Shown here: positions 8,681-18,490 of the stretch, in pieces
Numbering within the stretch: the stretch's first letter is position 1
Layout: every line of letters begins with the position of its first letter
Source of the DNA: Escherichia phage EF1-1
Direction: 5' to 3' (one strand)
DNA length: 64,000 nucleotides
Sequence record: PQ571289
Notes under the pieces: generated by a model
Databases searched by the model: none
What the model saw: only the letters and a program-made list of their open reading frames with translations
What the model was told of the DNA's origin: nothing
Translations under genes and position numbers: made by a program

Positions 8681-9742
8681 ATGGCGAAGCCAATATATTA
8701 TCCTGACTGGGCTACACAAACTGTAACGCTCCCAGGAACTTTAAACACAAACAAAATTAGACCTAAAGAAACCATCCGCACAGTTGGTATGGATTATGGT
8801 CAAATCATGACTTGCGAAGAAATGAACTGGATTCTTAATAATATCGGTTTATGGATTCGCTATTTGGTGGATGATTTTCTTCCAACTTTACCTAATACCT
8901 ACTTGCCTTTAGTGGGAACTAAGATTACAATGGCAGGTGATGCTACTGGTGAGGCCACTTGGAACGGTAACAAAGAAGTTACTTTATCTATCCAGGTTCA
9001 AGATAACAGTCATAATCACTTGTCGGCAAACATTACAGATGCCACTAGTTCAACAGTAACACCAAACGTGTTGGTAAAACGTGATGCGGGTGGTGCTATT
9101 TATGGTGGCGATGTTTATGTTAACGGTACTTCCACAACAGATCCTGCAACACTGTTCTTCAAAAACTTCGCAGGACAAACCAATGGTGAGATTTCTGCCG
9201 AATACCAAAGTGGAGGTCAGCTTTATATTTATCGTAGAAATCCTAGCACAGGTAGTGTATCGGCAGGTGTTCGTTTATATGATGCAGGTTATGTTCTAAT
9301 AGATAATCCAAGATCAAACAGTGGACAAGATACTTCTAACGGAAATGCTTTAGTTCGTTTAGATTATCTGAACTCTCGTTTGACTTCCCTTCAGAACACA
9401 TTGCAGACGAATATTAACACTGTTCAAAACAACTTGAATAGTGTTAACAACAACCTCTCTTCTCGTATAAACAATGTAGAAAGTAATCATCAAAGTCAGA
9501 TTACAAATAACTACAACTATGCTAACGGAACCTTTGTAAGAGATATTCGTTATACTAGCCAAGGTGTGTATTATCCACCAGGGAACGAGGTTTCTTGGAC
9601 TTATATCTGTTCTTCTGGTTATGTTCTTTCTGGTATTATCGTACAGGAAACAGGACGTAGCTCTGCGGATAACATCGGTGGGGTTTACTTCAAACGCCTC
9701 CAGCGCAACGTTAACGGAAACTGGTACGATATTGGAGGCTAA
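8681..9742 (+). CDS. tail fiber protein
   Basis: 353 aa; Asn/Ser/Thr/Gly-rich with repeat segment LNSRLTSLQNTLQTNINTVQNNLNSVNNNLSSRINNVESN. Confidence 0.5.
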   Translation: MAKPIYYPDWATQTVTLPGTLNTNKIRPKETIRTVGMDYGQIMTCEEMNWILNNIGLWIRYLVDDFLPTLPNTYLPLVGTKITMAGDATGEATWNGNKEVTLSIQVQDNSHNHLSANITDATSSTVTPNVLVKRDAGGAIYGGDVYVNGTSTTDPATLFFKNFAGQTNGEISAEYQSGGQLYIYRRNPSTGSVSAGVRLYDAGYVLIDNPRSNSGQDTSNGNALVRLDYLNSRLTSLQNTLQTNINTVQNNLNSVNNNLSSRINNVESNHQSQITNNYNYANGTFVRDIRYTSQGVYYPPGNEVSWTYICSSGYVLSGIIVQETGRSSADNIGGVYFKRLQRNVNGNWYDIGG

Positions 9743-10288
9743 ATGATATTTACAAACTTTAAAAAATATATTCCTGAAGACCCTGAACTAAAAGAATTGG
9801 TAGAAGCAGAGAACATTCTTTTTCTTCGTTGCGATCAAGGTTACGACTGGTATGATTTACGTAGCACAGAATTCAATAACGATAAAATGAAAGTCGTTTT
9901 TGATGATCAAAATCGTATTGTGTTTTGGAATACTGATCCTACACTACTTTGCCCTGAAGATCTTTCTATAGCACAAGTAGACTTTAATATAGATACTTTT
10001 GAGGATATTAGGAACAAGGTTCTGGATTTAGAAACCTTAACTCTTAAGGATAAAGAGTATTCCCGTGAAGAGTTGATGACACAAGCTAGTGCAAAAATTC
10101 GCTCTTTGCAAGAAACAGCGGTAGCACTTATAACACCTTTACAGTATGCTAAAGATTTAGAAATGGCTACTGAAGATGAATTAGCTTATCTTAAAAATCT
10201 TCAAGTTTATGTAGTTAAACTAAATCGTGTTCCGCTTCAAAAAGACTATCCTTACGCTATAGATTGGCCTACATTACCGACAGAATAA
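9743..10288 (+). CDS. tail fiber assembly chaperone (Tfa-like)
   Basis: 181 aa directly downstream of fiber gene; C-terminal ...YVVKLNRVPLQKDYPYAIDWPTLP resembles Tfa family C-terminus. Confidence 0.5.
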   Translation: MIFTNFKKYIPEDPELKELVEAENILFLRCDQGYDWYDLRSTEFNNDKMKVVFDDQNRIVFWNTDPTLLCPEDLSIAQVDFNIDTFEDIRNKVLDLETLTLKDKEYSREELMTQASAKIRSLQETAVALITPLQYAKDLEMATEDELAYLKNLQVYVVKLNRVPLQKDYPYAIDWPTLPTE

Positions 10289-10297
10289 GGGATCACT

Positions 10298-15780: not shown

Positions 15781-15805
15781 AGCCCCGAAAGGGGCTTTCT
15801 TTTTA
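15781..15805 (+). terminator. rho-independent terminator
   Basis: agcccc-gaaa-ggggct hairpin followed by ttctttttat. Confidence 0.7.
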
Positions 15806-15817
15806 TGGAGGGTTTAA

Positions 15818-18490
15818 ATGTTTCCAATTCCAATATTTACTATTATGACCAGCACTGGTGTCGTTCCTCTGCCAGCGGGTATTGTTAAAAAAGTAATCAC
15901 TTTAGATTACCCAGATAATGCTGGTAATTCTAATAGCAGTTTAGCAATTTTGCTTAATGATGGTAGATTGTTTACTCAAGGCGCAAACCTTTTTGGTGAG
16001 ATTGCAGATGGAACTCGTAGTGCACGATTCAATAATTTCCACTTAGCTTCTACTGTAGTAGCGGATGTGTTTACCGCAGATCGTTGTTTTGTTATTAAAA
16101 CTAACAGTGGGGGATGGCAATATTCAGGATTGACAGCAGGATTGGTAGGATCTATAGCAGCAGGTGGTACGGACGCATGTGTAACTACTTGGACCAGCTT
16201 TCCATCTGTAATAACAGGGACTATCTCTTTAGCCAATCTTAAAGAGGTTAAGGGAGGATATAACAACACTCTCTGGTTAATGAATAGTGGTGTTCTTTAC
16301 GGATCTGGTCAAAACACAGTAGGCAGTTTAGGTGCAAGTACTACTAACGAAGTTTCTACTCCTCGTCAGATAACAAGTTCAGCAGTTGCTTTTGATGCAG
16401 GTTACAACCAATGCTCTTATGTCAACAATGTGGGAACCTTGCGTGTTTGTGGAGCTAGTAAAGGTTTAGCAGGTAATAATAACACAACAACAGCTTTTGT
16501 CAATGCCATGATATCCGCTACTGAAACAGTGTATGTCAAAGATTACATCAATACAGTTTCCCAGACAATAGTTGTAGGAGATACCTCCGGTGGCACGGGT
16601 ACAGTAAACTACTTATATGTTAGGTCTAATACAGAAACAACCTACACTAAACTGGACACCTTTGCAGCAGGTTTCTCAACATGGAAATTTCCACCAAGCC
16701 GCCACTCTTTTTTCGTTGGGATCAATAATTCCTTGTGGGCTATTGGTAAGAACTACACTGCAAACTTAGGTTTGGGGTATGATTCTGCGAGCGGAGATCC
16801 ACTTCAAGTGGGAAAACCAGTTAAACCTGAAGGAGTGGGTTCCTGGGATATAAACAAGCTCACAAGCGTTCATACGCTGAATATGGATGTTACTAATCAA
16901 TTAGGTTATCAAGGAACCTTTTTCGTTTATAATGGAGATATGTATTATTCCGGTATTTGGAAAGATGGGAAAGCCTCTTATCTGTTCAATAGTGGTCTAA
17001 ACTATAATAAATTCACACCAATAGCAAGCTCCGTGATTACGGGTGATATTCTGGCAACTGGCTTAACTACAGATTCTTTAGGAATTTGTATTGTAGGTGG
17101 AACTAAACAGTTGACACATTCTGTTAGCCCAGAAGGAGGTAAACTTTTCAATATTAAATACACTTCTTCTGCCCCTGCAAACATGACAATATCATCTACT
17201 GGTTTAATGACTTTCCATGCAGAAGGTGGTTTTGATGCAGGTATGACAGCCTTAAACGCTGAAGGAACAACTTTATCAGATACCTCTGGAGGATATGCTT
17301 CAACATTGAGTGTTTACACCCCTAGCTTATCTGCGATGGATGTAGGAACAACACAAACAATGGTAGCAGAAATAACGCCAACAGGAGCAGCAAGCTTACC
17401 TGGTATGGTTGTTGAGTATACAACTACAGATCCTAATGTTGCTACAGTAGATCCTACAACTGGTGTAATAACTGGTGTTGGTGATGGTGGTTGTAGAATT
17501 GGTTGCACAGCTACGTATCAAGGTGTTGTTACCGCTTCTGATAGTTCTTATTTAACGGTGAACGCTGTTGCGGGAAAGGAGTTAGCTCCATCTCCGAGTA
17601 GTAGTTTAACGGTTCTAAACGGATATTTCAACCACTCGGCAGATGGGGCAATCACGTTCCCAATTTTATCGGGTACTGTCACACCAGCTAACTTTGTAGT
17701 TAAGGTGGATGACGTTGTAATACCTTCAAATAAAGTAATATTTAGAAATAAAGCTTTCTCTACAGTGGATAGTTATCCAGCAGGAGAATATAGACTGGCT
17801 ATTGAATTTGCAAGTGCTTCAGTAGTGAATAGTGTTGATGTGTCTATGGAAGCAAATCCAGATCTTTTAGAATTATGGGGCGGCAACAGAATTGGTTATT
17901 CTACAAGCCCAGCCTCACAATTCTTAAAAGGTTGTGCTAACTTAAGACGAATAACTTCTGATTGTTTTAGTAACACATCTTACACCGGAACATCTATAAG
18001 TGGTATCTTCTCTGGCTGTACAAGTTTGACAGCTATCCCTGAAGGATTATTCAGTGATGCTTTATTTCCTTCAATGACAACAATGTCAAGCACGTTTGAA
18101 GGTTGTACATCTTTAACATCTATTCCTTCAGATTTATTTAAGAATCTATCAAAAGTTACAAGATATTCTTACACCTTTAAAGATTGCACCTCTCTTGCAG
18201 AAGTTCCAGCAGGAATGTTTGATAATATTCCAACGAAAGTGACCTCCTTAACAGCTACATTCCAAGGTTGTTTAGCACTTACAGATTTTAATAAAATCTT
18301 TAATGACAATCCAGGGTTAACTGTTTGTGGTAAACGTGGAGCATTATCTTCTTTCTTTAGTGGATGCACAAATCTTACAGGAACAGGAACAACATTAACA
18401 AATACATTAGGCGGAGTAGCTAATAGTTACCTATTCAGGTATTGCACAAAACTTTCTGATTATAACAACATTCCTTCGGGTTATAAATAA
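15818..18490 (+). CDS. tail fiber/receptor-binding protein with Ig-like segment and BspA-type leucine-rich-repeat C-terminus
   Basis: C-terminal repeats FSGCTSLTAIPEGLF / FEGCTSLTSIPSDLF / FKDCTSLAEVPAGMF / FQGCLALTDF; Ig-like segment TTDPNVATVDPTTGVITGVGDGG. Confidence 0.5.
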   Translation: MFPIPIFTIMTSTGVVPLPAGIVKKVITLDYPDNAGNSNSSLAILLNDGRLFTQGANLFGEIADGTRSARFNNFHLASTVVADVFTADRCFVIKTNSGGWQYSGLTAGLVGSIAAGGTDACVTTWTSFPSVITGTISLANLKEVKGGYNNTLWLMNSGVLYGSGQNTVGSLGASTTNEVSTPRQITSSAVAFDAGYNQCSYVNNVGTLRVCGASKGLAGNNNTTTAFVNAMISATETVYVKDYINTVSQTIVVGDTSGGTGTVNYLYVRSNTETTYTKLDTFAAGFSTWKFPPSRHSFFVGINNSLWAIGKNYTANLGLGYDSASGDPLQVGKPVKPEGVGSWDINKLTSVHTLNMDVTNQLGYQGTFFVYNGDMYYSGIWKDGKASYLFNSGLNYNKFTPIASSVITGDILATGLTTDSLGICIVGGTKQLTHSVSPEGGKLFNIKYTSSAPANMTISSTGLMTFHAEGGFDAGMTALNAEGTTLSDTSGGYASTLSVYTPSLSAMDVGTTQTMVAEITPTGAASLPGMVVEYTTTDPNVATVDPTTGVITGVGDGGCRIGCTATYQGVVTASDSSYLTVNAVAGKELAPSPSSSLTVLNGYFNHSADGAITFPILSGTVTPANFVVKVDDVVIPSNKVIFRNKAFSTVDSYPAGEYRLAIEFASASVVNSVDVSMEANPDLLELWGGNRIGYSTSPASQFLKGCANLRRITSDCFSNTSYTGTSISGIFSGCTSLTAIPEGLFSDALFPSMTTMSSTFEGCTSLTSIPSDLFKNLSKVTRYSYTFKDCTSLAEVPAGMFDNIPTKVTSLTATFQGCLALTDFNKIFNDNPGLTVCGKRGALSSFFSGCTNLTGTGTTLTNTLGGVANSYLFRYCTKLSDYNNIPSGYK

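Follow-up and report, generated by a model that had tools for sequence, protein, structure and literature searches.

A multi-fibre host-recognition locus of the phi92/phAPEC8 type in Escherichia phage EF1-1 and the exchangeable leucine-rich repeat cassette of its last protein

We analysed a stretch of 64,000 nucleotides (nt) from Escherichia phage EF1-1 (record PQ571289; hereafter the window), in which an earlier note, made from the sequence alone, had described positions 8681-18490, together with a gene at 3536-5755, as a cluster of fibre and spike genes. This region very probably forms the distal half of a late structural operon that builds a peripheral baseplate host-recognition apparatus, as in phi92, rV5 and the phAPEC8 relatives. 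The locus is already known; the earlier observation was confirmed, and the interpretation attached to it was partly supported. Our own results concern sequence identity, synteny, domain content, a cassette boundary in the last protein and the predicted leucine-rich repeat (LRR) fold of that cassette. All five open reading frames (ORFs) were present exactly where they had been placed, on the + strand, in a single co-oriented block whose 3' end is a bidirectional terminator-like hairpin. The main features, with lengths in amino acids (aa), are as follows:

3536-5755, + strand, 739 aa: variable tailspike in the phi92 gp143 slot; aa 1-54 attachment segment, aa 93-149 Tail_spike_N (TD2), the rest receptor-binding body
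8681-9742, + strand, 353 aa: short tail fibre of the Mu gpS type, orthologue of phi92 gp147 (fibre III)
9743-10288, + strand: tail-fibre assembly chaperone (Pfam Caudo_TAP, E = 3e-13)
10637-13690, + strand, 1017 aa: predicted colanic-acid-degrading tailspike (colanidase spike), orthologue of phi92 gp150; aa 9-114 lateral-fibre N-terminal attachment domain, aa ~115-207 adaptor-like segment, aa 226-372 TD1-TD2 tandem, aa 426-1000 beta-helix enzyme body
13752-15776, + strand, 674 aa: collagen-like fibre, orthologue of phi92 gp151; Tail_spike_N/TD2 at aa 12-77
15818-18490, + strand, 890 aa: last protein of the operon, in two parts:
15818-17569, + strand: conserved part ('TfpM1', orthologue of phAPEC8 gp086); RCC1-like seven-bladed propeller at aa 1 to ~385, two Big_2 domains at aa ~411-584
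17570-18490, + strand: exchangeable C-terminal cassette; beta-sandwich at aa ~598-690, LRR solenoid of the BspA/DUF285 kind at aa ~700-890

A megablast search with the 9.8 kb at 8681-18490 matched 70 phage records, in 68 of which one single match spanned at least 80% of the query. The match to 536_P1 (Phapecoctavirus) was at 99.1% identity, and 60 records reached at least 95%, including phAPEC8, ESCO5, AV125/AV126 and tuntematon; nucleotide identity was 97-99% in about 60 deposited genomes. Judged by this identity, the source of the window is a phAPEC8-like E. coli myophage of the Stephanstirmvirinae, genus Phapecoctavirus. By BLASTP, the encoded proteins matched phAPEC8 gp097-gp086 and phi92 gp141-gp152 one to one with the order kept. 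Both the nucleotide identity and the gene order (wedge pair, short fibre, chaperone, small protein, colanidase spike, gp151-type fibre, Big_2 protein) thus place the region among the Phapecoctavirus/Stephanstirmvirinae multi-fibre loci of the phi92 gp141-gp152 type. Outside two cassettes, the proteins are 98-100% identical to those of phAPEC8 and other Phapecoctavirus loci. EF1-1 differs from phAPEC8 in having the LRR allele for its last gene, and from the other Phapecoctavirus loci in its tailspike body at 3536-5755, which was missing from all of 50,697 phage records searched.

The multivalent adsorption apparatus proposed in the earlier note is in fact the published description of this phage group. 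The term was applied to phi92 (a Justusliebigvirus; Schwarzer et al. 2012, as cited in PMC13450770), the multi-fibre description covers relatives of phi92, rV5 and phAPEC8 (PMC8594841, PMC10844046, PMC13450770, PMC11414711), and the locus appears as a 'nanosized Swiss army knife' in the BASEL, AV125 and BME3 papers (PMC8594841, PMC10844046, PMC12210895). In the cryo-electron microscopy (cryo-EM) study of phi92 (2026), gp147 is fibre III and gp143 is proposed as the tip of fibre I, fibres I and III sit on gp145, fibre II meets fibre I at the base of the latter, and contraction is triggered when fibre III and the wedge rearrange (PMC13450770). The EF1-1 locus resembles that of phi92 in gene order, in its one-to-one orthologues and in having several co-expressed fibres and spikes for one baseplate. 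It differs in a longer colanidase, in the short-fibre tip and chaperone, in the tailspike body and in the last protein, where a propeller precedes, and an LRR cassette follows, the Big_2 pair known from gp152.

The prediction that 10637-13690 encodes a colanic-acid-degrading spike is well supported, the activity being assigned by homology to phi92 gp150, the only protein here for which colanic acid hydrolysis has been reported (PMC13450770). The enzyme body (aa 426-1000) matched the crystal structure of phi92 gp150 (PDB 6e0v) with E = 1.3e-79, and the spike also matched phrog_6117 'colanic acid degradation' (E = 1e-282) and the WcaM NCBIfam models (about E = 1e-25). It is 99.8% identical to phAPEC8 gp088. 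Compared with gp150, it is 74% identical in the N-terminus and 33% in the body, and it is 213 aa longer, with an added TD1-TD2 tandem. The N-terminal 215 aa match the N-termini of Vequintavirinae lateral fibres, aa 115-207 match SP6 gp38 and the PP99 adaptor, and aa 226-372 match the N-terminal domains of CBA120 TSP1/3/4 and related proteins (E = 1e-24 to 9e-30; structures 4qnl, 6nw9, 5w6f, 4oj5, 5w6h and 9d84).

The tailspike 3536-5755 shares 94-98% identity with phi92 gp143 and phAPEC8 gp095 over aa 1-54 and is unrelated to either over the remainder, so that the slot filled by an endosialidase in phi92 and in phAPEC8 holds an unrelated body here. A TD2 domain follows the attachment segment (Pfam Tail_spike_N, E = 3.5e-14). 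When the body (aa 201-739, window positions 4136-5755) was searched by tblastn against the 50,697 phage records, zero matches were obtained; the exact protein was found in 3 Logan contigs only, and the next relatives of the body were 59-65% identical, an E. coli P22-like prophage tailspike among them. The local GC content is 0.449, against about 0.39 elsewhere. This contrast suggests that the body was acquired recently.

The short fibre 8681-9742 is 99.4% identical to phAPEC8 gp091 and 75% identical to phi92 gp147 across aa 1-267, the shaft, with a different tip. It matched phrog_4465 'tail fiber' (E = 4e-108), and its C-terminus matched the baseplate short tail fibre of phiTE (9cuy_c, E = 4.6e-23). 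The Caudo_TAP chaperone gene lies 3' of the fibre gene, and the two are orthologous to gp147/gp148, an arrangement of the Mu gpS/gpU type; gp147 itself has been stated to be similar to the Mu fibre (PMC13450770). The chaperone shares just 24% identity with phi92 gp148 and therefore co-varies with the tip of the short fibre.

That the apparatus is branched, as the earlier note further proposed, is plausible. The pointers are the adaptor-like segment and TD1-TD2 tandem of the colanidase spike, the TD2 domains of the collagen-like fibre and the tailspike, and the junction of fibre II with fibre I in phi92; we infer from them that the fibres may branch from one another through these domains. TD1/TD2 (Tail_spike_N) modules are shared with CBA120 TSP1-4 of the Ackermannviridae and with G7C/SP6/K1-5 (4oj5, 5w6f, 5w6h, 6nw9 and 4qnl; E down to 9e-30), and the SP6/PP99 adaptor-like segment recalls the adaptor systems of the latter group. 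One trait of an Ackermannviridae-type branched complex, TD1/TD2 N-terminal domains on the spikes, was thus found, with Tail_spike_N in three proteins. Unlike the branching in CBA120, phi92-type fibres are reported to protrude each from the baseplate (PMC11414711).

We propose that the variable tailspike and the colanidase spike would be co-assembled on the baseplate and cut surface polysaccharides, the former acting on O-antigen or capsule and the latter on colanic acid. The collagen-like fibre, as a trimer, would provide additional reversible contacts. The short fibre, folded by its chaperone, would bind the core of lipopolysaccharide (LPS), and its movement would rearrange the wedge and lead to sheath contraction. 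The last protein would act as a low-copy accessory virion adhesin, in which a scaffold of propeller and immunoglobulin-like (Ig-like) domains presents an exchangeable C-terminal domain, here the LRR solenoid, that tunes host range. From the literature on relatives we take where gp143 and gp147 sit on the virion, that gp150 is enzymatically active and that LPS serves as the essential receptor.

Several points weigh against this scheme. AlphaFold models of gp150 and gp151 fit the fibre II density of phi92 poorly (PMC13450770) and fibre II is not assigned; the positions of the colanidase spike and the collagen-like fibre are therefore unsettled. The likeness of gp151 to the Pa223 head spike, together with a foldon motif, makes a neck or head location possible for the collagen-like fibre. 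None of the Pfam or PDB matches suggested a gp10-like XD docking domain, no search aimed at such domains having been made, and we therefore did not file the locus as a member of the Ackermannviridae-type branched complexes. In the last protein no trimerization or baseplate-anchor motif was recognized, and the phi92 version consists of the 202-aa Big_2 pair only, so that a phage can evidently do without both propeller and cassette. Finally, the virion evidence comes from relatives only, namely cryo-EM of phi92 and phiTE and mass spectrometry of rV5; the O177 'proteomics' paper makes no mention of mass spectrometry or of liquid chromatography-mass spectrometry (LC-MS).

Four of the five genes are well supported as fibres or spikes, namely the variable tailspike, the Mu-like short fibre, the colanidase spike and the collagen-like fibre, but for the fifth, the last protein, fibre or spike status in the trimeric sense is unproven from sequence. 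The earlier note had described the latter as Ig-like and LRR modules; both stand, but an RCC1-like propeller of ~385 residues at the N-terminus had been missed. Pfam returned RCC1 (23.8 bits against a cut-off of 21.7), WD40_RLD (42.9 bits, under its 150-bit cut-off) and Big_2, the last with 36.2 bits on the full protein and 47.7 bits, in two stretches, on aa 330-620, both above the gathering threshold of 22.8. An AlphaFold2 model built with 23 homologues (mean predicted local distance difference test score, pLDDT, 83.5) shows, from the N- to the C-terminus, a propeller, a pair of Ig-like domains, another beta-sandwich and a solenoid. A Foldseek search with the full-length model returned mainly UVR8/RCC1 structures (E = 4e-13, target template modelling score 0.65-0.69), in agreement with an RCC1-like propeller.

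Among relatives, aa 1-584 are 98% identical to phAPEC8 gp086, aa 411-584 are 66% identical to phi92 gp152 (202 aa), and the N-terminus shares 39% identity with rV5 gp27 over ~200 aa (E = 3e-27). Like the last protein, rV5 gp27 (1878 aa, 'Ig-like domain-containing protein') stands at the end of the fibre operon and has the N-terminal propeller segment and Big_2; it differs in being twice as long, with another middle and C-terminus in which no LRR was detected. It was detected in virions by mass spectrometry with 3 peptides (3.1% coverage) and was counted in BASEL among the allelically variable lateral tail-fibre genes (PMC8594841). These data indirectly support the view that the last protein may be a low-copy virion protein. 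In Shigella phage SF1-1 (L002:17139-19810) the orthologue is annotated as two coding sequences, 17139-17453 and 17450-19810, probably because of a frameshift or sequencing error in the record.

The cassette boundary is exact. Identity to phAPEC8 gp086 is 98% before aa 584/585 (nt 17569/17570) and nil after it. The LRR allele occurs in 35 phage records; phAPEC8 and phiWec181 carry an alternative cassette of 307 residues with no Pfam match, and in several further records the high-identity match does not extend over the 3' end of the query. The genus Phapecoctavirus thus has two cassette alleles at a sharp boundary. The alternative cassettes of phAPEC8 and phiWec181 share 99% identity (L009:12748-13668 and L001:18891-19811), whereas the fibre locus of phiWec181 shares only about 77% nucleotide identity with the window; this points to a recent horizontal exchange. 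The last gene keeps its final place in the fibre operon in more distant phages too, where it has a DUF285 end or no cassette.

Since the full-length model had returned mainly propeller matches, the C-terminus was modelled separately. It was predicted to form a curved solenoid of short beta-strand repeats resembling solved LRR structures, and its top two Foldseek matches in the PDB, 4fs7 and 4gt6, are entries from gut bacteria, deposited as a leucine-rich repeat protein and as a leucine-rich cell-surface protein. The sequence holds six to seven 'F-x-G-C-x-x-L-T' units at a spacing of 27-32 residues; the longer form of the motif, F-x-G-C-x-x-L-T-x-I/V-P, is shared with BspA-type LRR_5 and DUF285/PARCEL proteins. 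Unlike the latter, the cassette has repeats longer than the canonical 23-26 residues, scores below every curated cut-off and is fused to a phage propeller-Ig scaffold. For the isolated C-terminus, LRR_5 (PF13306, 'BspA type') reached 17.5 bits against 27.7 (E = 0.0039), DUF285 (PF03382) 15.4 against 25 bits and PARCEL/TIGR02167 18.3 against 30 bits; the full-length protein gave no LRR_5 match at E<=0.01, and a PDB profile search with the cassette was uninformative. The assignment is carried by homologues that do pass. LRR_5 and/or DUF285 is present in 37 of the 49 outside relatives at 28-42% identity, alleles of the last protein at the same operon position in more distant phages are bona fide DUF285 (E = 1e-42), and a profile-profile comparison joined the LRR and DUF285 allele groups (probability 73%, E = 3e-5). 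An LRR of the BspA/DUF285 kind preceded by Ig-like domains, as the earlier note had it, is therefore a fair description, although the direct LRR_5 match stays below threshold.

The earlier note called this a module more usual in bacterial surface adhesins. The module is not simply borrowed from these, as the relatives examined all lie in phage tail or baseplate contexts and not in bacterial adhesin genes. The two nearest outside relatives with an examined context are small LRR-repeat proteins of 269 and 359 aa. The first (L007:3410-4219) is encoded on a crAss-like contig, where its neighbours are a Phage_tail_C protein and the ring and muzzle genes of crAss phages; the second (L008:2196-3275) lies beside a sheath gene on a myophage contig. 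A weaker match comes from a P2-like phage of Klebsiella, whose baseplate protein gpI bears a related LRR as a fusion. These sequences hint at a possible wider, uncharacterized family of phage-tail LRR proteins.

What the last protein does can be read in more than one way. It might be a Hoc-like decoration or accessory adhesin and not an infection-determining receptor-binding protein, giving weak, non-essential adherence to environmental surfaces, mucus or cell debris, with cassette variation reflecting niche. This would fit several observations: the Big_2 domains are the sole part kept in phi92, many relatives stop directly after them at 565-573 aa, and Justusliebigvirus phages without a full last gene nevertheless have broad host ranges (PMC12695924, which names the 890-aa protein 'TfpM1'). 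The gene is also located 3' of a terminator-like hairpin, the coverage of its rV5 homologue is very low, and resistance screens with 536_P1 yielded mainly LPS and capsule mutations. However, the gene lies invariably at the end of the fibre operon, a sharp cassette boundary with near-identical cassettes in loci otherwise about 77% identical is typical of host-range determinants, and in P2-like phages related LRR modules are fused to the baseplate protein gpI. Cassette type, moreover, co-varies with the reported secondary host factor in phiWec phages, a correlation confounded by other fibre differences. We consider the decoration reading possible but doubtful, and prefer an accessory virion adhesin whose cassette tunes host range.

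A stronger claim, which we regard as unlikely, is that the last protein represents an uncharacterized host-recognition class, in which a non-fibrous propeller-Ig scaffold carries a horizontally exchangeable ligand-binding cassette. The LRR version would then belong to a phage-tail subfamily shared with crAss-like and P2-like phages, bind a non-glycan (protein) ligand and set the choice of secondary receptor. According to the phiWec paper, flagella serve as secondary receptor for the phages that have the phAPEC8-type cassette, and the LRR-cassette group needs YhaH; the two groups differ in other fibre genes too, which confounds the correlation between cassette and receptor. The literature searched yielded no RCC1, Ig-like or LRR/BspA phage receptor-binding protein, and among the proteins of the locus the last one alone is without a prior domain-level description there. 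Returning to the accessory adhesin that we prefer, we infer both its presence on the virion and the nature of the LRR ligand.

The proteinaceous receptors envisaged in the earlier note were not borne out. Resistance to 536_P1, which carries the same LRR allele, maps mainly to LPS core biosynthesis and capsule over-production (PMC11495123); a minor class of 'membrane proteins' appears in a figure legend of that paper. The BASEL data for the phage group implicate enterobacterial common antigen and LPS (PMC8594841). A protein receptor for EF1-1 is thus unsupported.

The collagen-like fibre was said to have long Gly-X-Y tracts. The tracts are real and above chance, but they are not long, as the following positions show:

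aa 210-227 (nt 14379-14432): Gly-X-Y tract 1
aa 277-300 (nt 14580-14651): Gly-X-Y tract 2
aa 323-352 (nt 14718-14807): Gly-X-Y tract 3
aa 454-486 (nt 15111-15209): Gly-X-Y tract 4
aa 531-553 (nt 15342-15410): foldon-like motif

The four runs comprise 6, 8, 10 and 11 triplets (18-33 residues each, 105 of the 674 residues in total) and are separated by three globular 'GKSAY...' repeat modules; 2000 shuffles gave an expectation of 0.19 runs of at least 4 triplets. Glycine is uninterrupted within them, and Pfam Collagen (PF01391) matched with 46.1 bits against a cut-off of 27.2 (E = 4e-12). The protein is 60% identical to phi92 gp151 over the full length and has the same four tracts, which are therefore a conserved feature of the family. 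Bacterial Scl/Lcl collagen-like adhesins and collagen-like phage tail fibres share the charged, Pro-rich tracts, the Pfam Collagen match and partial matches to the NCBIfam SclA/Lcl models. Unlike in the Scl/Lcl adhesins, the tracts here are short and interrupted (score 61.8 against an equivalog cut-off of 400), and the N- and C-terminal domains are phage-specific. The foldon-like motif matched the fibritin foldon weakly (PDB 1v1h, E = 0.003), and a C-terminal trimerizing element is plausible.

This motif, which resembles the C-terminus of T4 fibritin, could also mark the protein as a neck or head fibre (a whisker, fibritin-like protein or head spike) and not a baseplate receptor-binding fibre. 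In the same direction, the GenBank record of phi92 notes a 'potential capsid binding domain' at the N-terminus of gp151, and gp151 is structurally like head spike gp52 of phage Pa223 besides fitting fibre II poorly (PMC13450770). We nevertheless hold this location to be quite improbable. The N-terminal Tail_spike_N/TD2 domain (Pfam, E = 1.3e-19) is common to baseplate tailspikes, the tip domain (aa 479-671) is homologous to chain 9cuy_g, a fibre in the deposited phiTE baseplate model (E = 8e-8), and the gene itself lies within the operon for the baseplate fibres. In a distant relative, moreover, the Phage_phiTE_241_C tip is joined to Phage_phiTE_241_N, the attachment domain borne by the colanidase homologue. 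A baseplate fibre making additional contacts thus stays our preferred reading of 13752-15776.

In that distant relative, a single 599-aa fibre (L006:612-2411) carries both domains by precomputed Pfam assignment. In a closer, Phapecoctavirus-like relative (L005:1700-6961), Phage_phiTE_241_N is found in the colanidase homologue and Phage_phiTE_241_C in the collagen-like homologue. This distribution suggests that an ancestral fibre may have been split and then elaborated into the colanidase spike and the collagen-like fibre.

The reading of the five ORFs as internal structural or non-virion proteins that merely resemble fibres was rejected and has next to no probability, because the phi92 homologues gp143, gp147 and gp150 were either localized in virions or purified from them, phiTE fibres appear in the baseplate map, rV5 tail-fibre proteins and gp27 were detected by mass spectrometry, and the domain content (tailspike N-terminal domains, a gp150-like polysaccharide-degrading body, a Caudo_TAP chaperone) is specific to external fibres. 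Domain searches, the check named in the earlier note, accordingly returned fibre-type domains and not internal structural proteins.

Around the five genes, the following features were assigned:

4-1365: gp141-like protein, orthologue of phi92 gp141, truncated by the start of the window; further receptor-binding candidate
1374-3527: gp142-like protein, orthologue of phi92 gp142; further receptor-binding candidate
6005-6313, + strand: TD1-only ORF, matching the N-terminal region only of PHROG tail-spike families (E = 1e-60)
6310-6552: gp144 orthologue, by BLASTP synteny with phi92
6552-8039 and 8042-8671, + strand: baseplate wedge pair, orthologues of phi92 gp145 and gp146 (80% and 87% identity)
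10298-10633, + strand: small gp149 orthologue (76% identity to phi92 gp149; phrog_15210)
15779-15798, + strand: terminator-like hairpin that separates the collagen-like fibre gene from the last gene, with an 8-pair stem (5 G-C) followed by a T run
18493-18514, both strands: bidirectional terminator-like hairpin at the end of the fibre operon, the point at which + and - transcription converge

The wedge pair, with Pfam Baseplate_J and DUF2612 matches, is the predicted attachment site for the fibres. Besides Calx-beta, the gp142 orthologue has two domains, the N-terminal one and the TIM barrel, that belong to the N4-type 'non-contractile tail sheath' receptor-binding protein (Pfam, E = 8e-78); it is likely an additional host-recognition component. 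Neither it nor the gp141-like protein had been counted in the earlier note. The gp149 orthologue has a hydrophobic N-terminal stretch followed by charged and Asn/Gln-rich sequence. Relatives and PHROGs label it 'lipoprotein', which we rejected: it has zero cysteines, so that no lipobox is possible.

The orphan ORF 6005-6313 encodes 102 aa, a TD1-type tailspike N-terminal module alone with no spike body downstream, and shares 42% identity with aa 230-302 of the colanidase spike. At the nucleotide level, positions 5954-6285 resemble the 5' ends of tailspike genes from Kuttervirus and Gamaleyavirus-like (G7C-like) phages (80-88% identity), a likeness that takes in the upstream hairpin and ribosome-binding site. 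By its sequence, 5954-6313 looks like an orphan recombination 'handle' or a remnant of a second spike. A 102-aa coding sequence of this kind has been described in phage BME3 (PMC12210895).

The phAPEC8 record has terminators annotated at places equivalent to both hairpins, and the GC skew switches sign at 18493-18514. A promoter scan of the window stayed at chance level (30 sites against 34.8 expected), and no transfer RNA genes were found within it.

The published picture of the locus is unchanged by our analysis. What remains new is the uncharacterized propeller-Ig-LRR cassette protein and the rare tailspike allele of EF1-1. In practical terms, the analysis adds a domain-level map of the locus, the exact cassette boundary, an LRR cassette with relatives in phage tails and a tailspike body unseen in deposited phage genomes. 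Phapecoctavirus phages such as 536_P1 and AV125 are used in therapy and biocontrol for their very broad host range, which is attributed to the multi-fibre locus; knowing module by module what each part binds would open the way to rational cocktail design and cassette engineering.

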